From: Phyllobates terribilis
Taxonomy: Eukaryota
Length of the DNA stretch: 64,000 nucleotides
Direction of reading: 5' to 3'
Assembly: GCF_046119375.1 (NCBI RefSeq)
Contig: NW_027362762.1
Location: forward strand, 636,864,001-636,928,000
Shown one piece after another: positions 2,076 to 60,468 of the stretch; the stretch's first letter is position 1; each line of letters opens with the position of its first letter. The notes under the pieces are model-generated. The model searched no databases. It saw only the letters and a program-made list of their open reading frames with translations, and was not told where the DNA came from. Made by a program: the position numbers and the translations under genes.

Positions 2076-3125
2076 TTAGGGAGGGACAATAGCTTGTAGG
2101 ACTTTCCTACCAAAGGCTAAATCCCTAATGGACGATAAGTCTAATCTATAATGTTTAGAAAATGTGTGAAGGGAAGACCATGTAGCTGCCCTGCAAATCT
2201 GCTCCGTAGAAGCGCCCGCTCTTTCGGCCCAAGAAGTTGATGTGGATCTGGTAGAGTGAGCTTTTAAGGCGATAAGTGGATACAACTGTTGATTGACATA
2301 GGCTTCCTCGATCGCTTTTTTAATCCAGTTTGCTATAGTGGATTTAGCTACCTTCCTTCCCCTGTTATGCCCTGAGTGTTGTATGAATAGGTTTTCATCC
2401 AATCTCCAAGACTCAGTCTGTTGCAGATAATAAAGAACAACTCTGTGGACATCTAAGAGATGGAACTCTGCTTCCTTTGAATTAGAAGGCTTCTGGCAGA
2501 AGGAGGGAAGGATGACCTCCTGGGAACGATGGAAATCTGTAACGACCTTTGGGAGGAAGGAAGGGTCAAAACAAAGAGTAATTCTATCTTCAGTCACAGT
2601 CATGTAAGGTTCTCTGATGGAGAGAGCTTGCAGTTCTCCTACTCTCCGTGCAGAAGTGATGGCTACTAAAAGGCAGTCTTAGGAGAGAGAGTCTGTATTG
2701 TGCTGGAGGACAGAGGCTCGAATGGAGAGAGGGTTAGACCCCGGAGCACCACATTAAGATCCCAGGATGGGACATGGGATCGATTTTTTGGGTGAAGTCT
2801 GAGTGCCGAAGTTATGAATCTTTTGATCCATCTGTGAGAGGCCAAATCTTGGTCGAATATGGAACCTAGGGCTGAAATCTGTACCTTGAGAGTACTAGGT
2901 TTGAGACCCAACTCCAATCCATTCTGTAAAAAATCAAGGATCCGAGCAATGTTGGGGTGTGAGGTGTCAGGAATATCCGGGGCATACCATGATAGGAATC
3001 TTTTCCATATTTTGCCATATATAGCATTGGTTACTGGCTTCCTACTTTGTTGAAGAGTTTTTATAACCTTTTCCGAGAGACCTTTGGATTTTAAGATCTC
3101 GGCTTCAGTAACCAGGCTGCAAGGT
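2076..3125 (-). pseudogene. DIRS-A tyrosine recombinase (1-nt frameshift near 2668)
   Basis: PSWDLNVVL, KTAF[fs]LVAITSARRVGEL, AHSTR, ATWSS and KHYRLD give the R, HxxR, W and Y catalytic residues. Confidence 0.92.
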
Positions 3126-4960
3126 TTAGCCACTGAGGATTTGGGTAAAATAGGGGACCTTGTGAGAGAAGGTCGTTGACCGGTGGAAGTATCACGGGAC
3201 CGTCCAGGCAAAGTTCCGTGATGGCGCCGAACCAAGGTCTTTTGGGCCACAAAGGGGTCACTAGAATTGTTGCCACCCTCTCTAACCTGACCTTCTGGAT
3301 AGTTCTTGCTATCAGAGGAATTGGAGGAAACGCATACACCAGTTTGAAATGCCAGGGATGGGCCAATGCATCTAGATTCATGGCATTGTCTCTTCTGTCC
3401 AATGAAAAGAAGAGGGGAAGTTTTGCGTTTAGGCGACTGGCAAAGAGATCTACTTCGGGGAGACCCCATTTTGCTACCAGTGACTGGAATATTTGAGGAT
3501 TCAAGCTCCACTCTCCTGGCTGAATGTCTTCCCTGCTCAGAAAGTCTGCTTGAATGTTGTTTGAGCCTTTCAGGTGGATCGCCGAAATTGACAGGAGATG
3601 ATGTTCTGCCCAGGAAAATATTCGACTTGCGATCTGTTTTAAGCTGTCTACCCTCGTACCTCCCTGATTGTCCGAGAGTATCTTCATGTGAGTACCCTGG
3701 ATTAGGTTGACTGCTGCTTTGAGCGTTTTTTCTACTGCCTTCAGCTCCCTGAAGTTGGAGGATCTGGCACTGATCCTGGGACTCCATCTGCCTTGAAAAG
3801 GAGTCTGGGCCACCATGGCACCCCATCCTCATATACTGGCATCGGTAGTCACTGTGATTAGAGGGTCCTGGGTCCAAGAAATCCCCCTCCTAAGATTTTG
3901 GGTGCTTAACCACCAAGAAAGGGAAGCTTTTACCCGGCCAGGAGTCCTGGTCCGTTTGTTTAATGCTTCCCTTTGTCTGTTCCATGATTTTAGGATATGA
4001 TCCTGGAGAGACCTTGAGTGGGCCTGAGCCCATGATACTGACTGGATACAGGCCGTCATTGACCCCAATACAGACATTGCCGTTCTCAATGTTGGATTCT
4101 TCTGGTGTCTGAAATTTGAGATCTTGGTTCTGAGAGCTGTTTGATGCTCCAATGGAAGAAAGGACATTTGTCTGTTGGAGTCCAGTAAGACACCAAGGAA
4201 CTTCCTCCTCGATGAAGGAAGGAGTTCCGACTTTGCCAGGTTCACAACCCAACCTAATGAGCGGAGGGTTTTTAGGGCTATGGAGACATGAAGATTGAGA
4301 TTCCCCACTGAAGGGGCGACAATCAGCATGCCGTCCAGGTATGGAATTATGCAGACCCCTTGTTTTCGGATGAGTGCAATGACTTCCGCCATAATCTTCG
4401 TAAACACCCGAGGTGCTGAAGAGATGCCGAAGGGCAGTACGTTGTACTGGTAGTGTTCTGTTATGTTGTCCCTGAAAATCGCAAAGCGCAGGAACTTTCT
4501 GTGGGTCGGATGAATCGGCACGTGGAAGTATGCATCTTTTAGGTCTATGGTTGCCATAACATAATCCTTCCCTATTAGGGGAATAGTTGACCTTATGGAC
4601 TCCATCTTGAATCACCTGTATTTGATGTGATGGTTTAGGGATTTCAGGTTGATTATGATGCGTGGGATGCCTGACTGTTTCTTTATTACAAAAATTCTTG
4701 AGTAGTGACCCGTACCCTCCTGGCCAGGGAGGACCAGAGACACTGCTCTGGATTTTAGCAGGTTTTGTAAACCGACTGAGGGCAGTTCCCAAGCCCCCCG
4801 AGAGGGAAGGGACGTGACCCTCAGGACCCGAGGGGGGCGACTCTCGAATTCCAATAGAAGACCCCCCTTGATAGTATTGAGGATCCACTGGCAGGAAGAA
4901 ATTGCCTGACACTGGGGAAAGAAATCCGAGAGACGCCCCCCTACACGGCGCAGGTCATTG
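3091..4960 (-). pseudogene. DIRS-A pol (RT, RNase H, methyltransferase-like domain)
   Basis: VGGRL, IDLKDAYFHVPI, LPFGISSAPRVFTK, YLDG (YxDD lost, 4330-4341), TTDAS, ADFLSR, DLFAS, YAFPP. Two in-frame TGA stops at 4612 and 3829 sit where Arg (CGA) is expected. Confidence 0.92.
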
Positions 4961-6379
4961 CTTGTCCTGCTGCTGGTGTTGTTGCTGGGGAACAAGGATG
5001 TTACGACCCCTGCCGCCCTTAGGATAGCTCCAGCGCCCAGACTTTCCCTTTCCTCTATATTGTGAGGGGTGACTCTGGGAAGGTCGAAAGGGACGTTTTT
5101 TAGGTTGTTTCTGTTCAGGAAGGGTTTTCTTCCTATCCGAGGCCTTCTCCAGGATATCATCCAGTGCTGGCCCGAGTACATATTTCCCTTGAAATGGAAT
5201 GGAACAGAGTTTAATCTTAGAGGTAACATCCCCACTCCATGTTTTGAGCCACAGTGCACAGTTACTCAGCCGAGGCGTCCGCTAAGAAGCCAGTGGCTTT
5301 TTGAAGGAGAGGGATGGAGTCTAGCAGGTCTGCTCTGGAGGTGCCCTGAGACAGATGTTCCTCTAGTTGGGTCAGCCACTTGAAGAGGGATCTGGCCACA
5401 CAAGTCGATGAAATATTCGTCTTGAGAGAGGCAGAAGCGGTTTCCCATGATTTTTTAAGGACACTTTCCATTTTCCGGTCTAATGGGTCCTTCAATTGGG
5501 ATGAATCCTCAAAGGGAAGTGAGGTTTTCTTCACAACCCTTGCCACCTGGATGTCCACCTTAGGGACGTCTCAATCAAATTCCTCACCTTCCAACGGAAA
5601 TCTGTGCTTTAATTCCGAAGGGGTGGTGAGACGGTTTTCTGGGGATTCCCATTCCTGTCGGATGAGATCTCTAATGACCTCATGAACAGGAAACCCAGTC
5701 TGCTTTTTTGATCTAAGGCCCCTAAACATTTCATCTTGAACGGAACAGGGGGCCTCAACATCCTCCAGCCCCATAGTGCCTCTAACTGCGTCCAATAATT
5801 CTTGTAAGTTTGGAAGGAAAAATAGTATCTTCCGGTTTCAACTTTTTTGGCAGGCCCTAAGGATGCTACTTCATCCAATTCATCAGAGGCAGAGCTACTA
5901 ACATCAATAGAGACTACATCTGAGTCTAACTATTGGATCTTCCTCTTCTTAGGGGGAGATGGCCTGGAGGAGGAGGAGTAGACAGGCAGTGCAGCAAAAG
6001 AGGCTTGGACCTCCTGTCTAACTACTTGGACCTCCTGTTTAACAAGAGATCTAAGTTCCTCAATTAGAGAGGGATTTTCTTCCTTAATTATTCTATCTGT
6101 ACAGGGACGGCACAATTTCTTCTTATAAGATGAGGATAACTTTTTAGCGCAGATGTCACATCTATGGGGCTGGTCTTTATCCTTCTTAGAAGCGGGGGCC
6201 TTGTCCTCCTAAGAAAGGGGAAGAGAAGGGGACCCATGTAACTAAAAGGAGGGGAGATCTAGTGTCATCTAAAGGAGAGGCTAAGATAACCCCTTAGTGA
6301 CCACCCAGGTACTACTCACTGTAGCCGAGGGCGTGCTGGGCTCTGCAGATGCAGGGATACTGGATCTGTCACCTTCCAT
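4955..6379 (-). pseudogene. DIRS-A gag-like ORF1 with a predicted 111-nt intron (6209-6319)
   Basis: CCACC-ATG-G at 6379; donor GTGAGT 6319-6314; pyrimidine tract and AG at 6210-6209. Exon 2 encodes CDIC...LCRPC, then KHRFP, DPLDRK and LCSIPFQGKYVLG, with several stops and frameshifts. Confidence 0.8.
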
Positions 6380-19502: not shown

Positions 19503-22500
19503 CAGTGTCGGACTGGAGTGTCTGGGGCCCACAGGAAGAATTGACCCTAGGTGTCCACCCTACATATATATCTTACATAGTCTCCTTTATTGTGTATATT
19601 GCCATCCCTTATTACATAGTGCCCTCTCTTGTTATGTACAGCACCGTCCCTTACATATTGGATTATTTATAGCTTCCTGTCTTTATTACATACCGTCCTT
19701 TCTTGTTAGATATATAATGCAATGACGGTTGATGGAGCATGGGAAAGCTTATTTTCTGATGGAGGAGCTGATGGACTGGTCTAATGGTCACCGGCTGCTC
19801 CATCAGCAGTCATTTTATATTTAACAAGAGACAACTATGTAGTAAAAGAGGGCACTGTGACTGACAAAAATAACTAGAATACGCTATGTAAGGGACAGCA
19901 CTGTACATAACAGAAGAGGAAGCTATATAATAAGAGACAACAACATATATAACTAGAGAGGATGGTACGTAATAAGGGAGGGTGTTATACATAATAAAAA
20001 ATGAAATGATGTAACTAAGGGTGGCGCTATACATAAGTGAGTACACTATATACTAAGGGACTGTGCTATACATAAGGCTACATTACATTCCTGTATCCGT
20101 GTGCAGTGTCGGTGTGCTGCCCGCTTTTACAGATGCCTTGAACATGCCTTATTCTGATCCTCAAAATCGGATCAGAGCAGGACATTCTCTGACCCCAACA
20201 ATCTCATTCTCAGATCTGTGATTTTCACGGATGTGTGAATGGACCCAGAAAATTCTATGAGTCCGTGTGCCGTCCGATAAAAAAATCTGGCAGCTCACGG
20301 GCATTTCACACAAATGTGAGAACGCAGCCTAAGGGATTTTACAGATAACATTATCACTACAAGTCCAAGTCACACAGTGCAGATATAGAATAATATTTAC
20401 ATCCAGAAACTTACTGCTGATGTCTCATCTGATTAGAGTCAGTTTCTGCTACTTCTTCTTCATCTGGTCAGACTTTCATGTCGACATCTCCCAGCCACCA
20501 CTCATCTTGTCACGATGATCACTGCAGCCCTTAAAAAAAACAAGGTCACATATATTGTATACATACAAGTGTCTCACCTGCACTGCGCCCCTAAATACAG
20601 ATTTCACCCCATCATTAATATACTATTAGACAATTAGCCACGCACCAATCAAAATATATCCATCATTGTCATATCTCCCCACCTCCATCATTGTCATATC
20701 TCCCCACCTCCATCAATGTCATCTCCCCACCTCCATCATTGCTCTCTCCATCCCCATCATTGCTCTCCCCCACCTCATGCACTGCTCTCCCCTACCTCCA
20801 TTATTGTTCTCCCCATCACCACCATTGCTCTCCCCTACCATCATTGCTCACCCCATCCCAATCATTGCTCTCCCCCACCTCCTCCATCATTGCTCTCCCC
20901 TACCTCCTGCATTGCTCTCCCTATCCTCATCATTGCTCTCCCCCACCTCCTCCATCATTGCTCTCCCCCACCTCCATCATTGTTCTCCCATCACCATCAT
21001 TGCTCTCCCCCACCTCATTCACTGCTCTCCCCTACCTCCATCATTGTTCTCCCCATCACCACCATTGCTCTCCCCTACCATCATTGCTCACCCCATCCCC
21101 ATCATTGCTCACCACATCCCCATCATTGCTCTCCCCCACCTGTTCCATTATTGCTCTCCCCTACCTCCTGCATTGCTCTCCCTATCCCCATCATTGCTCT
21201 TCCCCACCTTCATCATTGCTCTCCCCCACCTCCTCCATCATTGCTCTGCCCCACCACCATTGCTCTCCCCACCTCCATCATTGCTCTCCCCCACCTGCAT
21301 CATTGTTCTCCCCATCATTGCACACCCCATCATTGCTCTCCCCACCTCCATCATAGCTTTCCACCATCATTTTTCTCCCATCCCCATCATTGCTCTCCCC
21401 ACCTTCATCATTTCTCTCCCCATCCCCATCATTGCTCCCCCCATCATTTTTCTCCCCATCACCATTATTTTTCTCCCCATCATTGCTTTCCCCACTTCCA
21501 TCATTGTTCACCCCATCATTGCTCCCCCCACCTCCATCATTGGTCACCCCATCCCCGCCATTGCTCTCTCCACCTCCATTGCTCTCCCCACCTCCATCTT
21601 TGCTCTCCGCCACCTCCATCTTTGCTCTTCCCCACCTCCGTCATTGCTCTTCCTATCTTCATCATTGCTCTCCCTATCATTGCTCTTCCCACCCTCCATC
21701 ATTGCTCTTCCCCATCATTGCTCTGCCCCACCTCCATTATTGCTCTGCCCCACCTCCATTATTGCTCTGCCCCACCTCCATTATTGCTCTGCCCCACCTC
21801 CATTATTGCTCTGCCCCACCTCCATTATTGCTCTGCCCCACCTCCATTATTGCTCTCCTCCAACTCCATCATTGCTCACCCCATCCCCATCATTGCTCAC
21901 CCCATCCCCATCATTGCTCTCCCCATCCCCATCATTGCTCTCCCCCCACCTCCATCATTGCTCTCCCCCACCTCCTACATCATTGCTTTCCCCCTCCTCC
22001 TCCTTCATTGCTCACCCCATCATTGCACACCTCCACCTCTGTCATTGCTCTCCCCACCTCCATCATGGCTCTCCTCACCTCCATCATTGCTCTTCCCATC
22101 CTCATCATTGCTCTCCCCATCCCCACAATTGTCTCCCCCACCATCCCTCATTGTCCTGTTCCTCTCCCAAACCAGTGTATCAGTAAAAAAAAACAAAAAA
22201 ACAACTCGCCTCTCTGCTTTTTCCCCCGCAGCAACTTTCTCCCTTTCGCAGGCGTGCGCTGCATGATGACGTCACCAAGCCGTGTCCCTGTGTCAGGGAG
22301 AAAGCACCAGGTAGGAAGCAGAGGATGGATCCCTCAGCTCTTCTGCCATTTTCCTCCTGTCAGCAGTGGAGCTGGAGGGATCGTTCCCTGCCCGTCACAC
22401 ATGAAGAGGGCAATCTGGCCATGGGCCCCCCAGAGCCTTGGGGTCTGAGAAGCCGGCCAGATTGCCCTCATTATTAGCTGCCCTGCAAGGGCCCACCTGC

Positions 22501-23902: not shown

Positions 23903-25039
23903 TGTGGCGCCCCGAGGGTTCGGTTGACACAGGGGTATTGGACCTCAACCAGAGGTGTGATATTCCACTCCCAGGTAAGGATGGAGTGTGGACCAGGGCT
24001 CAGTTAGCTGCATCCACACACTCACCCCATTTCCGGGGGACAGCTCGACGGTGCTCCCATATAATTTCAGGCACAACTGACCATGTCCCTGGCTGGAGTG
24101 GGGAGGGGGGAGAGAACCCAGTGATGTAGGAGCAGAGGGGACCGTTTCTGGAGCATAGAAAGGAGCTCATTGGGTGCAGGTCACCTGAGCTCAGACACAG
24201 AGAAGCAGATAAAAGGTGGGAGCCATCTTAGGAGTTCAGAGAAGCAGAGCAGAGTGAAGGAGGAGAGAGCTGACAGGGAGCTGCGGCTCAGGCTGAGCTC
24301 AGCTCCACGAGGCAGGCCTAGAGAGAAGGCCGGGGCCAGAGAGGAGAAGAGAAGAAGAAGGAAAAGGAAGGAAGGAGAAGAGACAGAGGAGTAGAAAGGC
24401 TCCAGAAACAAGAAGGCAGAAGGGACCCTTTATTGGTGCGACCCCCCCGCCAAACCTGCTAGGAATGCACCATATAGGATAGCGGGAAGCGGAGGCCAAT
24501 GCTTATCCGACACGGTCCGCGGTAGCTGGACAGAAGTTGGGTCACTGGTGGGGCACGAGAGGCCAGAGAAAGGACAGAAGGGGGTCCTGTGCCATACTCC
24601 TGAATTGCCTGGGGGTTGACCGAGCTCCTCACCTGGTGGACGCAGCATGGCTTGGGCAGTCATTGCTGACCGAAGTGACATGGATAACAACTGTGAGTAA
24701 AAACCCTGGACTGCACTATTGGACTCAGTGTGCTGCGCCTGCACCATCACCCCCAGCATCCACCTACACTGCCCTGAGGCTACACTCTTCCCGTGGGGAG
24801 TTATCCTATCCCTGTGCTGCACACCAACACCAGCCTCAGCAGTCTGCCTCGCAGCGGCGGTTATCCCTGACCGCAATCCACGGGTGGCGTAGTCGGACAT
24901 TCAAAACACTGATAAATAGACTGCCGCCATTTGGTCTGACCACCCTGAGCCACGGGACCGGGTTGCCACTACAGCCCCCATCAGCACCGTACACCAGAAG
25001 GCCCGGTTCCGGGTACCCCACGGCCCAGGGGGCGAGTCA
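23903..25039 (+). repeat. 5' LTR (TG...CA, about 1137 bp)
   Basis: Starts TGTGGCGCCCC, ends GAGTCA four nt before the PBS. Confidence 0.88.
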
Positions 25040-25043
25040 GCTT

Positions 25044-25062
25044 TGGCGTAGTCGGCAGGATT
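25044..25062 (+). promoter_or_regulatory. Primer-binding site for tRNA-Ser
   Basis: TGGCGTAGTCGGCAGGATT is complementary to the 3' end of vertebrate tRNA-Ser (...AATCCTGCCGACTACGCCA). Confidence 0.9.
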
Positions 25063-25157
25063 GTGACCAACCCGCCACCAACGGGTATTGCGTGCCTGAA
25101 AATAGACTGTTTCACTGTATTGAAAATGGCGCCCGCCCCTGCAGAACGGACGCCATA

Positions 25158-26702
25158 ATGTGCGCACCAGAAGATAACAGGAAGCCACCTCCCATCGCGG
25201 GCCAGGTCCCAGAATGGCGCCAAAGAAGGAGCCCACCCCCAACAGCCATGAGTGCGGCTGTAGAGATGTCCATCAAGGTGGGGGGGCTGCCCCTGAGAGT
25301 GATTGTCAGCAGATTGCCCCAGGACCACCCCCAACAGGGGCGGAAGGAGAAGAAAACCGAGGGGCAGGGTGTGGTTTGGATCAGTCTCGCCAGATCACAC
25401 CCGGAGATGGAGAGGAGCACCAACTCCAGCACCCTGGCAAGCGGCCTGCTGCAGGCCGAGGCGACCCCGTACAGCCTCACGGAGCTGATGGCTCAGCTCT
25501 CCGCAGAAGACCCTGAGTTCCTGCGGGCTGCGCTGGAGGAGCTGGATCGGAAGATGGTCCGGGCGCAGAGGGAAGTCATCGCCGGATGGAGGGAGGAGAT
25601 GGCCCGGCGGGTCGCGACCTGGCAGCAAGAGACGCTGCCAGCACCCGGCAGTGCACCTGCCCCCGAGGATAGAGAGAGGAGACCGGAGGCCGAGAACAGC
25701 GCTGCTGCGGAGGCAGGTAAGGAAAACACCCCTGCCCCGGGTACTGACGCCTTAGGCTTACCCCTGGATCCCGCTGCGGAGCCAGAAGTCCCGGGAGACG
25801 CTGCAGCTTCCACGCTCCCGACGCCGGTACGTAGGCCTCAAGCCGCGAGCACCGCCGCTGAACCATGCCCCACGTCGTGCCCCCTGACCCCGGGTGCGGT
25901 CGGAAGCGGCCCGCTCCAGTCCTGGTCGCAAGGCCTGGCCTTCCCGGGCGTCCCCCAACCGCGTGCGCCCCCGGTCCCGAAGCCACCACCCCTTGGGACT
26001 GACCTGTACAGCCAGCTCGCCGGACCCGATGGAGAGCCGGTCCCTGTACCAGAGGGATGGGTCCACCCTTGTCTCCGGGTGGCCCTGTCCGCAGAAGACA
26101 GAGCCCTGCTTCGTCCGCTTCTGCCTGCTCCACAGCCCGTTGATGTCCCCCAGCTCCTGATCGAAGAGGTCCAGTACGAGTGGGACCAGGCCGGGGAGGA
26201 CCTGATGGAGTTCTCGCAGGAGACGCGGGCGGCCGCAGCCCGCATGTGGGAGTTCTGTCACCGACAGGTGGCGCAGTTGGAGAAGGAGAGGTTGGTGCGG
26301 CGCCAGATGCATGAGCAGCTGCAGGCCCGGAGCGCGGAACAGAAAATGCGCGCCCGGCGAGACCCCCAAACCGCACGCAGTCCCAGAATCATAGGGACCG
26401 TGGTGAAGTTCCAGCAAGAGGAGAGGTGGGGTTTCATCAGAGACCCGACGACGGACACGGATGTGTTTGTTACCCGGAGAGACGTAGAGAGCCACCAGCC
26501 AGAAGGTCACCAGGGGCAGGATCTGTTCCCGGGAGATCGGGTGTCCTACACCAGACACAGAGGGCTGCGGGGGTGGTATGCCCTTAACATCTGGAGGGTA
26601 ACAGAGGAGCAACACTACCCTGTACCCGGCTATTCAGAGGACCCAGATGGGTCTGAGGAATGCGAGGAGGAGGAGGGTGCGCAAGGAGGACACCACTACT
26701 AA
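25158..26702 (+). CDS. 514-aa protein: helical N-region, Pro/Ala linker, predicted coiled coil, C-terminal cold-shock domain (26388-26600), acidic tail
   Basis: First in-frame ATG of the 24537-26702 open frame (track start is a TTG inside the LTR). GTVVKFQQEERWGFIRDPTTDTDVFVT...LFPGDRVSY...GLRGWYALNI aligns by eye with the CSD consensus GTVKWFN..KGFGFI...DVFVH...L..G..V.F...G.KG..A.NV. Confidence 0.75.
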   Translation: MCAPEDNRKPPPIAGQVPEWRQRRSPPPTAMSAAVEMSIKVGGLPLRVIVSRLPQDHPQQGRKEKKTEGQGVVWISLARSHPEMERSTNSSTLASGLLQAEATPYSLTELMAQLSAEDPEFLRAALEELDRKMVRAQREVIAGWREEMARRVATWQQETLPAPGSAPAPEDRERRPEAENSAAAEAGKENTPAPGTDALGLPLDPAAEPEVPGDAAASTLPTPVRRPQAASTAAEPCPTSCPLTPGAVGSGPLQSWSQGLAFPGVPQPRAPPVPKPPPLGTDLYSQLAGPDGEPVPVPEGWVHPCLRVALSAEDRALLRPLLPAPQPVDVPQLLIEEVQYEWDQAGEDLMEFSQETRAAAARMWEFCHRQVAQLEKERLVRRQMHEQLQARSAEQKMRARRDPQTARSPRIIGTVVKFQQEERWGFIRDPTTDTDVFVTRRDVESHQPEGHQGQDLFPGDRVSYTRHRGLRGWYALNIWRVTEEQHYPVPGYSEDPDGSEECEEEEGAQGGHHY

Positions 26703-26784
26703 GGAGCGGCAGCGTACAAATGTATATAGTTACCCGTCAGGGTAAAGAAACTGTTGCATAGAGTTACCCGGTATCAGGTCAGTT

Positions 26785-26895
26785 AAAACTGGCTGAGGAC
26801 TGAGAGCAGCCATTCCTCTTCCCAACCTGGCTGAGGACTGAGAGCAGCCATTCCCCTCTGTTTGATCCGGCCGAGGACTGGGAGCGGCCAACCCT
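26785..26895. repeat. Three short tandem units (ctggctgaggactgagagcagccatt) in the 3' UTR of the LTR element
   Basis: Copies near 26789, 26828 and 26868 (third diverged). Confidence 0.8.
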
Positions 26896-27424
26896 GTAAA
26901 TAGTTGCGCTTCTTAAAGCGCCCCCTATTGGTTTTATAAAAGTACTGCAACGTCTACCTCAGGACAAAAACTCGTTTGGCGTGGCCGAAGACGTGGTCCA
27001 ACTACCGGATCACCTATGCCCTGCAGCCACGCCCAGGGCCTACGTGGAGGGTTTGCGGACGAGTCCCTCATGTTTGAAAGTGTGCTAAAGTTTTGCACCT
27101 TATTGGAAGAATGCACACCTGGGCGCAAGTTGCACCGCGGCCAGTGAATCAGAATTTGCTTAAAAATGTTTTACCTGAAAAAGTTTTGCTATACTGAATT
27201 GTTTGATATGCTGCTAAAAGGAATTACATGATAGTGCAAATGTTTTATATGGTGTCTGGTAAAAGAGTTAAAGTGTTGAAAAAGAGAAAATGTTTCCCAT
27301 AAAGGGAATTGAATAATGTTGGCTATTTTCTAACGTAAAAAAAAAAAAAAAAAACTTTAATTCTGCATGTCTTGTAAATCAAATGTTTTTACTCTTTTCC
27401 AGCCCGAGGACGTGCTGTGGTTTA

Positions 27425-27435
27425 CCAGGGGGGAA
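27425..27435 (+). promoter_or_regulatory. Polypurine tract
   Basis: ccAGGGGGGAA immediately 5' of the second LTR. Confidence 0.75.
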
Positions 27436-28192
27436 TGTGGCGCCCCGAGGGTTCGGTTGCCACAGGGGTATTGCACCTCAACCAGAGGTGTGATATTCCA
27501 CTCCCAGGTAAGGATGGAGTGTGGACCAGGACTCAGTTAGCTGCATACACACACTCACCCCATTTCCGGGGGACAGCTCGACGGGGCTCCCATATAATTT
27601 CAGGCACAACTGACCATGTCCCTGGCTGGAGTGGGGAGGGGGGAGAGAATCCAGTGATGTAGGAGCAGAGGGGACCGTTTCTGGAGCATAGGAAGGAGCT
27701 CATTGGGTGCAGGTCACCTGAGCTCAGACACAGAGAAGCAGATAAAAGGTGGGAGCCATCTTAGGAGTTCAGAGAAGCAGAGCAGAGTGAAGGAGGAGAG
27801 AGCTGACAGGGAGCTACGGCTCAGGCTGAGCTCAGCTCCACGAGGCAGGCCTAGAGAGAAGGCCGGGGCCAGAGAGGAGAAGAGAAGGAGAAGGAAGGAA
27901 GGAGAAGAGACAGAGGAGTAGAAAGGCTCCAGAAACAAGAAGGCAGAAGGGACCCTAAGAGAGCAGAACGGACAGCAACCGTTGCAAACCCCCGTTATAT
28001 CGGGTAAAGGGTCAGGCTGTGGAAGGGTACCGGATTCCCAAGTTGGTGGAGGTAAATCATCCCTCAGCCAAGAACCGGAGGTCTTGATCATTTATTGGTG
28101 CGACCCCCCCCCCCCCCGCCAAACCTGCTAGGAAGGCACCATATAGGATAGCGGGAAGCGGAGGTCAACGCTTACCCGACACGGTCCGCGGT
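27436..28192 (+). repeat. 3' LTR, truncated at its 3' end
   Basis: About 8-9 substitutions and one small indel versus the 5' LTR over the first ~525 nt (manual count); has ~134 extra nt (27957-28090); stops at acggtccgcggta. Confidence 0.92.
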
Positions 28193-28194
28193 AA

Positions 28195-28880
28195 GTGGGG
28201 GTATTTATGGAGAGGAGGGGGCCGTATGGAGAAATAGGTGTTCACCATGAAGAAGTGGGAGGGTAGGAGACAATATGGGTACGGGGCAACAGGATGAACA
28301 ACTGGGAGCATCTGAGGACCATATGGAGAAGAGAGAGTGTGGTGGGATTGTATGGAGGAGTGTGGGGAACATATGGAGGTGTGGGGGGACTATATGGAAA
28401 AGTGGGGGACATTATAGAGAGGTGGGGGGACCGTATGGAGAAATAGGAGCGTGGGTGCACCGTATAGAGAAGTGGGTGTAAAATATGAAGAAGTGGGGTG
28501 ACAGTATAGAGAGATGGGAGCATAGGGGACAATATGGAGAAATGGAGGTACAGAATGGAGAACTGGAAGATGTGTGGGTCCATATGTAGAAGTGGGAGTG
28601 TGAGGGGATTGTATGGAGAAGTGCAACAGTAATTATAGAAGGGAGCGTGGGGGGGCAGTATGGAGAGCTTAGAGCATGGGGAACAATATTGAGAAGTGGG
28701 GGAACAGTATGTAGAGATGGGAGTGTGGCGGGACAGTATGGATAGGTGAAAGCTTTGGGGCCAATATGGAGAAGTGTGGGCACGGTATGTAGAGATGGGA
28801 GCTTGAGGGCACAGTATGGAGAGGGGAGAGCTTTTTAGGACAATATGGAGAAGTGGTGGCACAGTATGGAGAAGTTGGAT
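28195..28880. repeat. Purine-rich minisatellite (TATGGAGAAGTGGG variants)
   Basis: Repeated tatggaga(a/g)(g/a)tggg units of about 20-25 nt. Confidence 0.9.
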
Positions 28881-29734
28881 CCATGTACTGTCAGTGCATC
28901 TGGTAATGGATTCATGTACTGACCTTGGTTCTGATCTAGTACAAATGTACCAATCCATAACTGATCAGAGATTGTCACCCTGCTGAGGCGGTTACCTTTC
29001 TGCCACTGCCACCCTACTGTGGCCGTCACCCTGCTGCCGCCGTTACCCTGCTGCCACCATCACGCTGTTGCCGAAGTGGGAAAGGTAAGCACCTTATACA
29101 ACCAAAACTTATAGGGACTTTTATTGTATATGAGGGATGTTACTGGGAAGGCACAGTATCTTGTGGGCAGTATGCAGAGGAGGAAAAGTGTTGTTCTAGT
29201 GCTGTATTAATCTACTGGTTCTGGCTCTGCATTCATTTACCAATAGTGGTTCTGGTGCTGCATTCATGTACTGACGGTGGTTCTGTGTATATTGTAGCTG
29301 TGGGCCCACCATACTTTGTATAGGGAAGCTGTAGGGTATTATATTGAGTATAAGGGAGCGGCACTGAGCTACCGTGCTGCCCATTATATACGAAGAGGGG
29401 GGTGGGGTGAAAAAAACAGGCCCCTGCCATTCTATATGTGCCTGCATGAACTTCTGTCCACACCACATCCTTGTGAAAGACATGCGCTCTATGCAGCGCT
29501 AAAAAGAGGAGGGATCCGATATACTCCCTGTGTGAATAGGTGCATCCAAGCCGCTCACTGCGCATAGCGCTCCGTGGCCGGCGTCTCGGAAGTCAGACTG
29601 TGCATGTGCGCACCGCCTGACATCCCATTGGACGCTGGGCAGGGAGGGGGAGGCTGCAGTGTTCTTTACATGAACTGATGCAAGCCCTAAAAACAAACAG
29701 TGACATTCCAGGTTGTGAGGTAGCAAAACACCAA

Positions 29735-40700: not shown

Positions 40701-41290
40701 GTGAAAAACCAAGAGGATAAAACTACATTATTCGGTCGTCCATGACAGCACCACGTAAGAGAGAGGATCCGCCCATCAAGGACAGGAAACCTACAGGTTA
40801 AAAAGGGCGGCCCTCTTTCCGCCTCAGTTTAGGTTTCCTGTCCATGATGGGGGACCTTGCAGGCTTACCTGCAGAAGATGGACTCCTGTCCCAGAGAGGG
40901 CCACAGCAGGTGGTTGGAGCCGGTCCGTCCCGGTCCTCTGGAGATGCCACGGCAGGGCTCATGGGGGTGCCTCCATGAGCGTTGCGACATCGCCTCACGG
41001 GAGGTAGATGTCCGCCAGGTGTGGGGCCGCTAGCGGGCTCCCCCCCCCCCCCCCGCTACCGCTTGCAGGAGATCCAGGTCGCGCCGGCGGCGCACATGAC
41101 GGGCGCGACCTTCTGACGCGACTTCCGGAAGGGGCGGGGCTCGTTTGAATTTTTTGGCGCAGCAAAGTCAGCAGCACTGTCAAATGCGGCTAGGCGAGCC
41201 TTGTGGATTAAAAACTGGCCAGGGGATTTACAGACTAAGTCCAGACTGTGTACAATCCCGTGTGAAGGGGAATACCTCTTTGGTCAGACC

Positions 41291-43378
41291 ATGGACGACT
41301 TATTGGAGAAAGCGGGGGACCCTAAGAAGGGGTTTCCATCAGTTCCTCTACCCTCCTTTAAGAGATCGTTCCGGAAGAGGAAATTTTTCCGGAAGAGATA
41401 TTTCAGGGAGCAAGACAAGTCTGATGGTAGAGGTCTACTCTTTGGTCCGTCTCCAAAAATTGAGCAGAAGCCAGGGGATACACAATCAGCCCAGGTGGGA
41501 GGGAGATTGTTATTTTTTGTCCCAGCTTGGGAACAGATTTCTCATAGTAATTGGATTTTGAGCCTGATTAAGTATGGTCTTAAATTTCAATTTAAAGCAT
41601 TGCCTCACAAAAGATTCATGGTTATTCCCTCCAGTTCTTCCCCAGAACGCCAGGCTGCCCTCGTTTCGGAAGTACAAACCCTAATAAGAAAGCACGTCCT
41701 GATTGAGGTTCCGGAAGCTGAAAAGGGTCTTGGTTTCTACTCCCCGCTCTTCTTGATTCCGAAACCAGATGGAAGTTTCAGGACAATTATAAATCTGAAA
41801 TCCCTGAATAATTTCCTTAAAATACACACCTTTAAAATGGAGTCTTTAAAATCCGTAATAAAGTTACTTTTTCCCCACTGCTATATGGTAGTGCTCGATC
41901 TCAAAGATGCGTATTACCATATCCCAATTCATAGTGATTACCAGAAATACTTGAGGCTGGCCATTGAAATAGACGGGGTGGTTGAACACTTCCAATACAC
42001 TGCACTCCCCTTCGGTTTAGCTATAGCCCCACGGGTTTTTACTAAAGTAATGGCGGAAGTTATGGCCCATATAAGAGAAAGGGACATTCTAATTATCCCT
42101 TACCTGGATGATCTCCTGATAGTGGGGAATTCGTTGGTTCAATGCGAGACCCACCTGCAGGAGACCATGTCGGTCTTGAAGAGTTTGGGGTGGTTTCTAA
42201 ATTTAGAAAAGTCTAGACTATCTCCACTCAAGGTACAACAATATCTGGGGGTCATATTAGATTCCAGGAAACAGCTATGTTGTCTTCCAGAAGAGAAAAT
42301 TGATAGAATCCGGGAGTTGGTAGAACAATGTATACGTAAACCTTCTATGTCACTCCGTAAGGCCATGTCACTATTGGGAACCTTCACCTCCACTTTTCCT
42401 GCGGTTCGTTGGTCACAATTGCATTCAAGAGCCTTTCAGTGGGATGTGTTGTACAATAACGCAGCTTTAGAGGGGCATCTAGACCGTAAGTTTACGCTAG
42501 GTCCTCGTGCCATATGGTCCCTTCGTTGTTGGTTACGACAAGACAATCTTGCTAAAGGGGTTCCCTGGGAATGTAGTCCAACTGCAGTCTTGTCCACTGA
42601 TGCAAGTGCTACAGGTTGGGGAGCTCACTTTGATGGGAAATTAGTGCAGGGAACCTGGTCAAGCAGTGAGCAACAGTTGTCATCAAATGTTAAGAAGCTT
42701 CTGGCGGTGCAGCATGCGTTCAACGAGTTCCTTATATATTTTCAGGACCAGCATGTCCGTGTACTCTTGGACAATCAAGTCACGGTAGCTTACATAAACC
42801 ACCAAGGGGGAACCCGCTCAAGAAACTTGATGAGGGTAGCGAACGCACTTCTGCTGAAAGCCGAAGATCACTGTCTCTCTCTTTCGGCTACTCATCTAAA
42901 AGGCAAGGAGAACATCACAGCGGATTTCCTCAGCCGTACTTCTGTAAAAGAAGGAGAGTGGTCCCTAAATACACAAATATTCTCCAGAATCGTAGAGATG
43001 TGGGGCCTTCCGTCTGTGGACTTATTCGCAACAAGAGCCAATCGGAAAGTGGAAAATTTTTGTTCCTTAGACCCCAGAGAAGGACCCCTGGCAGTGGACG
43101 CCTTTATGGTTCCCTGGAGGTTTCCTCTGGCATATGCCTTCCCTCCCATGATCCTGCTCCCAGCGGTGATAAAAAAGATCAGGGCAGACCGGGCCAGAGT
43201 GATACTCGTATGTCCCTTTTGGCCCAAAAGACCGTGGTTCCCTTGTCTCCGGAAGATGTCCATATCAGATCCCTGGGTTCTTCCGGAGATTCCGGACCTC
43301 CTCACTCAAGGGCCACTTTCCCATCCTCCAACCCCGAGTCTACATTTGACGGCGTGGAATTTGAGAGGGTGTTATTGA
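41291..43378 (+). CDS. DIRS-B pol: gag tail fused in frame to RT, RNase H and MT-like domain (695 aa from first ATG; frame open from about 41117)
   Basis: VGGRL, LDLKDAYYHIPI, LPFGLAIAPRVFTK, YLDD (42101-42112), STDAS, LLDN, ADFLSR, DLFA, YAFPP; no stops. RNase H Glu appears as Lys (AAG, 42695-42697). Confidence 0.88.
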   Translation: MDDLLEKAGDPKKGFPSVPLPSFKRSFRKRKFFRKRYFREQDKSDGRGLLFGPSPKIEQKPGDTQSAQVGGRLLFFVPAWEQISHSNWILSLIKYGLKFQFKALPHKRFMVIPSSSSPERQAALVSEVQTLIRKHVLIEVPEAEKGLGFYSPLFLIPKPDGSFRTIINLKSLNNFLKIHTFKMESLKSVIKLLFPHCYMVVLDLKDAYYHIPIHSDYQKYLRLAIEIDGVVEHFQYTALPFGLAIAPRVFTKVMAEVMAHIRERDILIIPYLDDLLIVGNSLVQCETHLQETMSVLKSLGWFLNLEKSRLSPLKVQQYLGVILDSRKQLCCLPEEKIDRIRELVEQCIRKPSMSLRKAMSLLGTFTSTFPAVRWSQLHSRAFQWDVLYNNAALEGHLDRKFTLGPRAIWSLRCWLRQDNLAKGVPWECSPTAVLSTDASATGWGAHFDGKLVQGTWSSSEQQLSSNVKKLLAVQHAFNEFLIYFQDQHVRVLLDNQVTVAYINHQGGTRSRNLMRVANALLLKAEDHCLSLSATHLKGKENITADFLSRTSVKEGEWSLNTQIFSRIVEMWGLPSVDLFATRANRKVENFCSLDPREGPLAVDAFMVPWRFPLAYAFPPMILLPAVIKKIRADRARVILVCPFWPKRPWFPCLRKMSISDPWVLPEIPDLLTQGPLSHPPTPSLHLTAWNLRGCY

Positions 43379-44388
43379 CCAACAAAGGATTCCCCGCAAA
43401 TGTAGTGAATACTCTCCTGGCTAGCAGAAAACCTGTTACCACCCGTATTTATGTCAGGACCTGGAGGAAGTTTCTGTCCTTTGCAGAAGTTAAGGTGGAG
43501 GAGGGGCCACCTATTGGCAAAATTCTGGAATTTCTGCAGCGAGGCTTAGAATTAGGTCTCACTACCAGTACCTTGAAAGTACAGGTGTCGGCGTTGGGAG
43601 CTTTATTTTCTTCCAATATTGCAGATAACTATTGGATAGGCCGTTTTATAAAAGCTTCCTTTAGGTGTAGACCCATTACCAAAGCAAAGATGTCTCCCTG
43701 GGATTTGAATTATGTCTTAGATGCCTTGACCAGTCCTCCTTTTGAGCCACTAGATTTAGTCTCCCCCAAAATTATTTTCCTAAAGACGGTCCTGTTAGTA
43801 GCCCTAACTTCAGCCAGGAGAGTCAGTGACCTACAGGCCCTTTCAATATGCCCTCCATTCACGCAAATTCTGGACGATAGGATTATATTAAAACCTGATC
43901 CAGTCCTTCTTCCTAAAGTGGCCACTCGATTCCATAGAACCCAGGAAATAGTTCTCCCAACTTTTTGCTTTCCGCCCAAAAATCAAAAAGAGGAGAGACT
44001 TCACACTTTAGACGTTAGGAGGTGCGTACTAAGGTACTTAGAAGTATCACGTGGCTTTAGAAAGGATAAGTCCCTATTTATTTGCTATCAGCGGGCTAGG
44101 AAGGGTTGTAAGGCCTCAAAGGCTACAATCGCTAGATGGATCAAGGAGTCCATTTCCCTCGCATACTCCTCAGGGGATAAAGAGATACCGGAGGGATTGA
44201 GGGCACATTCTACCAGAGCGCTGTCAACCTCCTGGGCGGAGAAGACAGGGCTTTCCATTGAGGAGATTTGTAAGGCTGCCACTTGGTCTTCTCCCTCTAC
44301 TTTCTATAGGCACTATAGATTGGATCTGGGTGGCTCTGCAGATCTCACTTTCGGGAGAAGGGTGCTTCAAGCTGTGGTCCCTCCCTAA
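42958..44388 (+). CDS. DIRS-B tyrosine recombinase, uninterrupted and overlapping pol (YR domain from about 43370)
   Basis: SPWDLNYVL, TSARRVSDL, AHSTR, ATWSS, RHYRLD, FGRRVLQAVVPP: all catalytic positions present. Confidence 0.9.
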   Translation: MVPKYTNILQNRRDVGPSVCGLIRNKSQSESGKFLFLRPQRRTPGSGRLYGSLEVSSGICLPSHDPAPSGDKKDQGRPGQSDTRMSLLAQKTVVPLSPEDVHIRSLGSSGDSGPPHSRATFPSSNPESTFDGVEFERVLLTNKGFPANVVNTLLASRKPVTTRIYVRTWRKFLSFAEVKVEEGPPIGKILEFLQRGLELGLTTSTLKVQVSALGALFSSNIADNYWIGRFIKASFRCRPITKAKMSPWDLNYVLDALTSPPFEPLDLVSPKIIFLKTVLLVALTSARRVSDLQALSICPPFTQILDDRIILKPDPVLLPKVATRFHRTQEIVLPTFCFPPKNQKEERLHTLDVRRCVLRYLEVSRGFRKDKSLFICYQRARKGCKASKATIARWIKESISLAYSSGDKEIPEGLRAHSTRALSTSWAEKTGLSIEEICKAATWSSPSTFYRHYRLDLGGSADLTFGRRVLQAVVPP

Positions 44389-58624: not shown

Positions 58625-60258
58625 TCACTCGTCGTCATCTTCATCATCATCTTCTTCTTTGTTCCTATTCATAATCTGGAAAAGAAAAACAAGCTTTCCT
58701 GCTTTATTGGGTCCCAACCGATTTCTCAATTTAGAATGAATGAGTCCAAAGGAAGAGAATATTCTTTCAACGCCTGCAGAAGAAGCTACTGCTGTTAAAA
58801 GTGAAATCATTACTTGAACAGTCTCTAAATCCAAGCGCTTAAGTGACTTCCACCAGTTTACTGGTGTGACCTTCCTTAAAATATCTTCAGCAAACATATA
58901 TTTCTTGAATGGTTCCCCCTTAGCTCTGAAGTTTATTATAGTTGGCATTAAAGATGGATGATTGCTGGATACCCATGTCATAGCTAACTCCTCTTCCTCA
59001 GCACTTAGGTTTTGACCCTGATATTGGATATTGACAATATTTGCCAAAAAATGAGCTGGAGTCAGTGCTTGTCCCATTCGTTTGTTTACTGCTTGTAATT
59101 TAATTCTGTCCATGTGTAGTTCTGTTTTTAAGTGTTCACTCAGTTCCTTCCAAATTTCAACAGCATCCGCAATAAAACAGCTATTTTTCTGTATTTTGTT
59201 TAAAGCTTGAGAGATGGGTTTCAGGAAGCTCAGCATATGTTCAACATTTCTCTTAAGCCCAATGTTGAGGATTTTGGCCGTGACAGTGCCATCTATTTTA
59301 TCTCGATTTTCTTCACAAAGTGTCATCAGAATAGGCCAGTTTTTGATATACTGCTCAAAACAGTCCACCACAGAGTTCCATCTAACATCTTGTGGGAGGG
59401 TTAGCTTGGTTCCACCCATCCTTTTCAGAGCTGCTGCAGCAAAATGATTATTACGGAAGTATTTAGCAATTTCAACAACATTAGCCTTTATTTCTGGAAC
59501 ACTTAAGTCTTTGGCTAAGAGTTGCAGCAAATGAGCACTGCAACCATATGTTATTAGCCGCTTTGTATTCCCTCCCTGCTCTTCTAAATTTCTTCTCATC
59601 TTGGATACGTTTGCAGCATTGTCAGTGACCAAACTGCGTACTAGACATTTGAATTTTTGTTCACATGTTGTTATAGCTTTTACTGCCACTTCTTGTAAGT
59701 ATTCTGCTGTGTGTGCATTTCCTGACGTATCAGTTGTTTGTGCAAGGAAGACTTTACCTTCTTCTGTTGTTATACAAGCACATACAATAGGATCATTGTG
59801 GACATTACTCCACCCATAAATACTTAGGTTAACAATTTTACCCTCCAGAGCTGTTGCACATTGCTCCATTTCTCTGTCATACACTTGATCCAGCAGTTTC
59901 CCTGCAACATCAGCTCTGCTGGGTGGACTGTATCCTGGTCTCAGTGACTGAACCATATTAGTGAAATGTGGGTTCTCAGTCAGACGGAAAGAAGAGTTCG
60001 TTGCGTAAATAAACTGGGCAATTTTTTCATCAATCAACTCTTTTTCTAATCTGCTAGTTCTTATCACAAACCTATCTATGGTGGTTCCAGGAGGTAAAGG
60101 TTTTTTCTTCCTTTTGGGTGATGGTGATATGTGGCTGTGGGTGTCTGATGATGATACTGCTGCTAATGAAGCACTATCCTGGATGGATAACTCTGAAACT
60201 GTAGAACAGGATGATGGTGATCTTGGAGGTGGATAGTTTCCAGAATCCATGAATTCCC
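58625..60258 (-). CDS. hAT transposase exon 2 (catalytic and dimerisation domains)
   Basis: AG acceptor at 60260-60259; LSIYGWSN (first Asp replaced by Tyr), VTDNAAN, CSAH, DVRWNS, SSAGVERIFS; no stops. Confidence 0.92.
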
Positions 60259-60468
60259 CTAAACAAAAAAAGTCAATGCTGTTATTTTATTGTTTATACA
60301 ATTTCTGCTTATTGTACACAACTCATCACTGCCCCTGCCCCAAAAGGAATATTTGTTTTTCTTCATAACTGTACCAAATGACAGTAACATGCAGTAATAA
60401 TAAGAAATATAATTTTTCTCACACAAGACAGTTCAGTCTTTAGAAATAGGATTCAATAAAATGTTTAC

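Follow-up and report, generated by a model that had tools for sequence, protein, structure and literature searches.

We found that a 64,000-nucleotide stretch of the genome of the poison frog Phyllobates terribilis (the window: assembly GCF_046119375.1, contig NW_027362762.1, positions 636,864,001 to 636,928,000 of the forward strand) carries, at positions 23903-28193, a long terminal repeat (LTR) retrotransposon whose single gene encodes a protein with a cold-shock domain (CSD). We hold with high confidence that the element belongs to a family that depends on a Gypsy element and whose CSD gene is under selection. Furthermore, we consider it fairly probable that the family is a satellite retrotransposon, one that would obtain all of its Gag and Pol from a Gypsy helper while using a captured and re-tuned CSD protein of its own to win packaging or escape silencing, and that would have tracked two helper lineages and rival or outnumber its helper at more than 1% of the genome.

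The family is a non-autonomous LTR retrotransposon, with paired LTRs that have TG...CA ends, a primer-binding site (PBS), a polypurine tract (PPT), target duplications, neither reverse transcriptase (RT) nor integrase, and a partner that has the same cis signals. The parts of the window copy are given below, together with ratios of non-synonymous to synonymous divergence (dN/dS) for regions of its open reading frame (ORF; aa, amino acids).

23903-25039 (+): 5′ LTR, 1137 nt, TGTG...GTCA (TG...CA ends); end placed from the PBS and from other copies in which both LTRs are complete
24737-25110 (+): cis region common with the autonomous Gypsy partner (3′ part of the LTR, PBS, start of the leader); 71-95% to gag-pol loci by blastn
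24885-24896 (+): second PBS-like motif, 12 nt, within the LTR, ~155 nt inside its end; seen in many copies
25044-25062 (+): PBS, 19 nt, complementary to the 3′ end of tRNA-Ser
25158-26702 (+): single uninterrupted ORF (P0001), 514 aa; start motif kept across lineages
25512-25634 (+): helix 1 by prediction, aa 119-159, perhaps a coiled coil (AlphaFold models); dN/dS 0.24-0.39 for aa 96-160
26214-26360 (+): predicted helix 2, aa 353-401, charged, runs into the CSD (AlphaFold models); dN/dS 0.10-0.33 for aa 331-405
26385-26597 (+): CSD, aa 410-480, five-stranded OB barrel (Pfam, AlphaFold, Foldseek); dN/dS 0.08-0.12
26786-26897 (+): 34-nt repeat, three times, in the 3′ untranslated region; the young subfamily has matches to it as well
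27427-27435 (+): PPT, AGGGGGGAA, identical to the PPT of the partner
27436-28193 (+): 3′ LTR, truncated; 97.9% identity with the 5′ LTR (616 bases aligned)

A preliminary description of this DNA, made from the sequence alone, had noted two closely matching LTRs, a 19-nt tRNA-Ser PBS, a PPT and one uninterrupted ORF of 514 codons, and the last three were recovered at the positions above. The LTRs do match closely (603 of 616 aligned bases), but the 3′ LTR is incomplete: it ends at 28193 with the last ~515 nt gone, and it has an extra 135-nt stretch (27956-28090) that is not in the 5′ LTR. A GA-rich repeat at 28193-28960 takes the place of its end. Because the 3′ LTR is incomplete, the window copy has no visible target-site duplication. 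For the PBS, a search pattern made of its complement and a tRNA T-arm stretch had 26 genomic matches; one of the four loci scanned is a tRNA-Ser(AGA) gene by ARAGORN, which found no tRNA gene at the other three. For the shared leader (24737-25240), folding does not exceed that of shuffled versions (z 0.54). Upstream of the element, a CT-rich 21-nt minisatellite occupies 20600-22200 of the window.

The CSD is the sole Pfam family match in the ORF (PF00313 at aa 413-480, 32.2 bits against a cut-off of 27), which bears out the domain proposed earlier, and it is again the only match in 36 of 36 ORFs of the family, with no gag, RT or integrase. Furthermore, comparison of the ORF with the partner Gag by hhalign gave a probability of 0.1%, in agreement with the earlier statement that the element holds no gag or pol. 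AlphaFold gave two models, built on 31 and 36 aligned sequences, of low overall confidence (mean predicted local distance difference test, pLDDT, 52 and 49); both show two long helices and a five-stranded OB barrel, with helix 2 and the barrel confident, and a capsid-like bundle is absent from both. The coiled coil that had been proposed before the CSD is thereby retained as a predicted helix, with a coiled coil possible. Every match listed by Foldseek is a CSD, with bacterial Csps at the top and ~27% identity to the YBX CSD. Because the listed matches are all CSDs and the family runs to tens of thousands of copies, the CSD match is not due to chance.

Under an alternative explanation, the ORF is a highly derived Gag in which the CSD has replaced the zinc knuckle. 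It does lie in the gag position after the PBS, and the single ORFs of Xenopus 1a11 and zebrafish Bik-1 are Gag-like (PMC4585706, PMC12067270). However, neither a capsid fold nor a PNMA or Retrotrans_gag match was found in the window protein, the middle of which is proline-rich (22%) and predicted to be disordered, and we regard this explanation as highly improbable and already largely refuted. A role as nucleocapsid substitute is the weakest of the three functions that the preliminary description had put forward, since the partner Gag has a CCHC knuckle of its own; the other two, germline RNA storage and counter-silencing, may apply.

Copy number, age and selection

In the 10.57-Gb genome (G000) the exact 3′ junction of the family occurs 24,162 times, against 0 for the reversed-pattern control, and a back-translated six-residue motif of the CSD has 24,781 matches, against 202 for its control. 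All of the 150 candidates scored in the genome protein search (of 37,132) match at 75-100%, and all of the 150 scored in the genome Pfam search (of 33,380) lie above the cut-off; two CSDE1-like loci of the host account for 8 of these. At ~4.8 kb per copy, the junction count corresponds to ~116 Mb, or 1.1% of the genome (hand calculation without solo LTRs). The family is thus multi-copy, in line with the preliminary description, which had proposed looking across the genome for copies with this LTR and ORF.

Two sets of copies were analysed. The first is biased, being 40 of the 150 scored matches with long frames favoured, and an LTR pair is visible in 35 of the 40. The second, hereafter the unselected set, consists of the first 40 3′ junctions listed on contig C1, a choice that ignores the protein and favours young copies. 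The ORF family is present in all 40 unselected copies; the CSD is kept in 35, with the frame intact in 29 and broken in 6, and is deleted in 5. The LTRs of these copies are 98.6-100% identical (median 99.7%; 18 of 20 full-length copies), and an exact 4-bp target duplication flanks 18 of the 18 in which both ends were found (20 copies), as it does 12 of 25 older copies with a crude end finder. Some family copies have identical LTRs. At a yearly rate of 2.5e-9 substitutions at each site, as applied in bioRxiv 10.1101/2023.11.06.565769, the unselected copies are ~0.7 Myr old and the window copy ~4 Myr (hand calculation). Where an LTR pair was measured in this set, broken or deleted copies are no older than intact copies. 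Elements are mostly 4.1-5.2 kb long, with an ORF of 510-630 aa, and at four loci (L016, L039, L041, L107) they form tandem arrays with a common LTR.

For the biased set, 28 intact ORFs gave a dN/dS of 0.39 overall and 0.12 for the CSD; these ORFs had been chosen by CSD score, and the analysis was hence repeated on 27 unselected ORFs chosen only by the non-coding junction (L130 and L143 were missed by the start-motif filter). Across these, the proteins of which are 50-99% identical and form a ladder-like tree, dN/dS was 0.27 overall, 0.08 for the CSD, 0.10 for helix 2, 0.24 for helix 1, 0.45 for the proline-rich part and 0.58 for the N terminus, values that are descriptive because pairwise comparisons are not independent. 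A codon model gave an omega of 0.07 for the CSD. The effect is specific to the frame: the four non-mirror frames over the CSD gave 1.8-2.4 and the antisense mirror frame, as expected, 0.23. Furthermore, shared variants within the CSD are synonymous in 75 cases and non-synonymous in 15. For comparison, the gag of the partner has a dN/dS of 0.12 (18 intact helper gags). Collectively, the dN/dS values of the gene, which the preliminary description had proposed to measure and which lie far below 1, indicate that it is under strong purifying selection.

The first 95 codons (25158-25442 and the corresponding part of other copies) have a low synonymous divergence, 0.21-0.23 compared with 0.64-0.84 in the CSD, which suggests either an overlapping RNA signal or recombination.

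The same analyses refute the explanation that a neutral host retrocopy came to lie between LTRs by accident, to which we assign next to no probability. CSD retrocopies do occur in the genome, one being intronless and interrupted (L109, L110 on C1), with two exons of its likely parent gene elsewhere (L111, L112 on C2); we take the retrocopy and its parent to be CSDE1-like from their sequence. A retrocopy is hard to reconcile, however, with the ~27% identity to the YBX CSD, with purifying selection that is frame-specific, or with the excess of CSD-motif matches over control.

The Gypsy helper and chimeric copies

The preliminary description had proposed a trans-mobilised family and a search for an autonomous Gypsy partner, and a Gypsy element of that kind, matching the family in LTR end and PBS, was found. 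The window-type junction of LTR end and PBS occurs 7,824 times in the genome, and among 39 loci with this junction (40 picked, minus L080) 31 lead on to gag and pol, while in 3 the CSD ORF follows directly. The partner gag has PNMA and CCHC Pfam matches and is followed by protease, RT (RVT_1), RNase H and integrase, which is the Ty3/Gypsy order; a Gmr1-type partner is ruled out because the integrase comes after the RT. The window family and the partner have in common the region 24737-25110, the LTR end, the PBS, the PPT and the 4-bp size of the target duplication, and outside 24737-25110 the window element has no blastn match to gag-pol loci. A search of 8 partner loci, taken in extended form, found nothing similar to P0001 (best E 0.73). 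One family copy is nested in a helper element (L084).

Younger CSD lineages have an LTR end with a one-base variant, and the variant junction occurs 29,831 times. Among its first 20 occurrences, 10 adjoin 3′ junctions of the family, and the other 10, once fetched, proved to be 7 gag-pol and 3 CSD elements. The gag of this second gag-pol lineage is 66-74% identical to that of the first. Because younger CSD lineages end their LTRs as the second gag-pol lineage does, both helper lineages have satellites that match them. Junctions of the 3′ type number 8,152 for the first helper lineage and ~18,000 for both together (extrapolated), so that, with 24,162 junctions, the satellite is about as common as its helpers or commoner.

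Among the 40 unselected copies, four are chimeras with the helper (L116, L125, L126, L147). L116 combines a 5′ LTR of the partner type (95% to L159) with a 3′ LTR of the family type and is flanked by an exact 4-bp duplication, whereas L126 and L147 contain the helper leader up to the gag start, and L125 was counted by its 98.7% identity to L147. Such chimeras would be expected from template switching in particles that held both RNAs; gene conversion is the alternative. From the shared ends and the chimeras we infer mobilisation by the partner, and the window family is likely to be copied in the particles of this co-resident Gypsy element.

An extension of this dependence, comparable to that of phage satellites, would be that the protein is directed at the helper, its helices contacting the partner Gag or its CSD binding partner RNA and so redirecting particles to the satellite. 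The junction counts, 24,162 against 8,152 for one partner lineage and about equal to or above both together, are in the expected direction, the LTR ends of the family follow two partner lineages, and its turnover is ladder-like. Against this, no domain shows positive selection, all regions being below 1, and the partner is still abundant; we consider a helper-directed role rather unlikely.

Origin and role of the cold-shock protein

In a diverse profile, YBX1/YBX2 rank first (49-51 bits), ahead of bacterial Csps/CspA (at most 41), LIN28 (24) and CSDE1 (22.5), and its alignment to the Y-box loop contains one gap. The CSD is likely to be Y-box-derived, and its capture from a host Y-box gene likely predates the split of the dendrobatoid genera. 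CSDE1, at 22.5 bits, is an unlikely donor. Named homologues, annotated as genes, came from Phyllobates, Ranitomeya and Anomaloglossus only, and profile searches found no named relative outside the dendrobatoids, a weak negative with 8000 candidates scored in two of the searches. Several 'uncharacterized' frog genes with a CSD in RefSeq are likely copies of the window family. One RefSeq model (P0002) fuses the family ORF to a DDE_Tnp_4 transposase and is probably an annotation artefact across nested elements. A distant CSD relative (P0039/P0064) has W at the position of YBX1 W65 and may mark a wider or older range. An ESM Atlas search with the family protein gave leads below 0.9 only.

Like YBX1/YBX2, the window CSD has a longer loop between strands 3 and 4 and keeps the positions of F74, F85, D83 and the loop-45 lysine. 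It differs from them in that the W65 and H87 positions are changed, and in that a long N-terminal helical and proline-rich region is present instead of the Y-box tail, which has alternating charge. Among the RNA-contact residues of YBX1 (W65, Y72, F74, F85, H87, K118; PMC7498358), the equivalents of F74, F85 and K118 are kept and the Y72 position is W (mapping by eye). R440, R441, R466, H467 and Y474 are invariant in the 27 unselected copies. The binding face of the CSD looks re-tuned, and the protein probably binds RNA.

We favour, at slightly better than even chances, the explanation that the CSD protein is a cis-preferring RNA factor that likely binds the RNA of its own element and gives it an edge. 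Under this hypothesis, the LTR would be transcribed in the germline, and the CSD of the resulting protein, carried on a long charged helix, would load mostly onto the RNA that encoded it and, in the manner of Y-box proteins, stabilise or chaperone that RNA. The RNA would then enter partner Gag particles via the common leader and PBS, and the RT and integrase of the partner would copy and insert it. Selection of this strength, in an element whose Gag and Pol are borrowed, calls for a benefit that comes back to the encoding copy, and a cis-preferring RNA chaperone or packaging aid would be the simplest such function. The persistence of selection along the ladder-like protein tree argues for cis preference. 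The five CSD-deleted copies have their best matches in four different intact copies (two are nearest to L144), and the breakpoints differ in the four that were aligned; recurring in this way, the deletions fit dead ends. There is also a precedent in YB-1, which supports HIV RNA metabolism and virion output (PMC6040738).

Several observations weigh against this account. The Y-box origin is not clean: a profile from the same genome places CspA slightly above YBX (25.1 compared with 23.2 bits) and Foldseek places bacterial Csps first, so that with the diverse profile favouring YBX1/2 this origin is no more than likely. At the positions of the canonical RNA-stacking residues W65 and H87, all 27 unselected copies have K and T, respectively, and RNA binding may therefore be altered or weak. 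Lastly, a chimeric lineage with a gag-derived start that is out of frame has 249 exact junctions, and two of its members (L125, L147) share a further frameshift. Since this lineage reached 249 copies, the protein is not strictly needed in cis, and since ORF-broken lineages can amplify for a time, its advantage is only partial.

This lineage is what would be expected if the protein were instead a trans-acting shared good, shielding the RNA of family and partner from germline silencing or storing it in oocyte particles, with selection acting via co-expressed related copies. The 11 of 40 unselected copies that are broken or deleted, those with a measured LTR pair being as young as intact ones, point the same way. 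Y-box proteins mask maternal mRNA, which would suit such a role. Gypsy RNA is high in the ova of poison frogs (PMC6278860). Cheaters, however, should erode a freely shared protein, yet its dN/dS is as low as that of partner gag and 29 of 40 frames are intact; we therefore consider a shared good unlikely, if the most serious competitor to a cis-preferring factor.

Dependence of the host is less plausible again. Host development would here need the protein and thereby keep the frame, as reported for the Gag of zebrafish Bhikhari (PMC12067270); xretpos, with its ventralising activity, is a second precedent (PMC4585706), and in three genera there are gene annotations for related proteins. The protein is nonetheless the product of thousands of loci, and selection by the host would hardly hold each replicating lineage at a dN/dS of 0.08, which makes this explanation improbable.

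Relation to known elements

LARD and TRIM are non-coding non-autonomous LTR retrotransposons. They resemble the window family in having LTRs, PBS and PPT without pol, and cis signals in common with an autonomous family; the difference is that the window family keeps an ORF of 510-630 aa under purifying selection. LINE-1 ORF1p, from an autonomous non-LTR element, combines a coiled coil with an RNA-binding domain (RRM) and is a cis-preferring RNA chaperone, but the likeness is a functional analogy only, RRM as against CSD, and we claim no homology.

Closer in architecture are zebrafish Bhikhari (Bik-1/-2) and chicken ENS-1/ERNI, which are likewise young vertebrate LTR elements with one long ORF, an N-terminal coiled coil (only a predicted helix in the window family), no pol and the need for a partner (PMC12067270). 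Their ORF is a Gag with a capsid fold, related to retroviruses, and Bik-1/-2 have a few hundred insertions (PMC12067270), whereas the window family has no capsid, a CSD, a Gypsy partner and more than 24,000 copies. Among frog LTR elements without pol are Xenopus 1a11, xretpos and lambda-olt 2-1, with a single ORF in 1a11 and xretpos (PMC4585706); the 1a11 protein is described as Gag-like, and the term 'cold shock' is absent from that paper.

A CSD within an LTR element is already in print for bird endogenous retroviruses, the authors suggesting convergent, adaptive capture (PMC12287698). There the CSD is a passenger in 46 RT-bearing elements, with strong Pfam-type scores, 1e-24 to 1e-26 in two rows of the supplement, and the available part of PMC12287698 holds no CSD-only family and no selection test. 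The claim of novelty in the preliminary description is thus narrowed: CSD capture as such has been described, and no description of the CSD-only LTR architecture was found in the full-text literature (the search did not extend to subscription journals, Repbase or Dfam), which leaves the novelty of that architecture provisional.

Non-autonomous LTR elements are expected to lose their coding sequence or to keep Gag only. A host-type RNA-binding domain as the sole gene, as constrained as the gag of the helper, would imply an undescribed step of LTR replication that a parasite's parasite can improve, and the family offers a tractable test of how selection keeps a protein in a replication-dependent element. 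It also contributes to the giant genomes of poison frogs, and screens that need Pol ORFs would miss such elements.

Elsewhere in the window, judged by eye, two DIRS-like elements, in each of which an RT frame overlaps a recombinase-like one, lie at 2076-5265 (-) and 41117-44388 (+), and an open frame of 553 aa at 58625-60286 (-) has the look of a hAT-type transposase.

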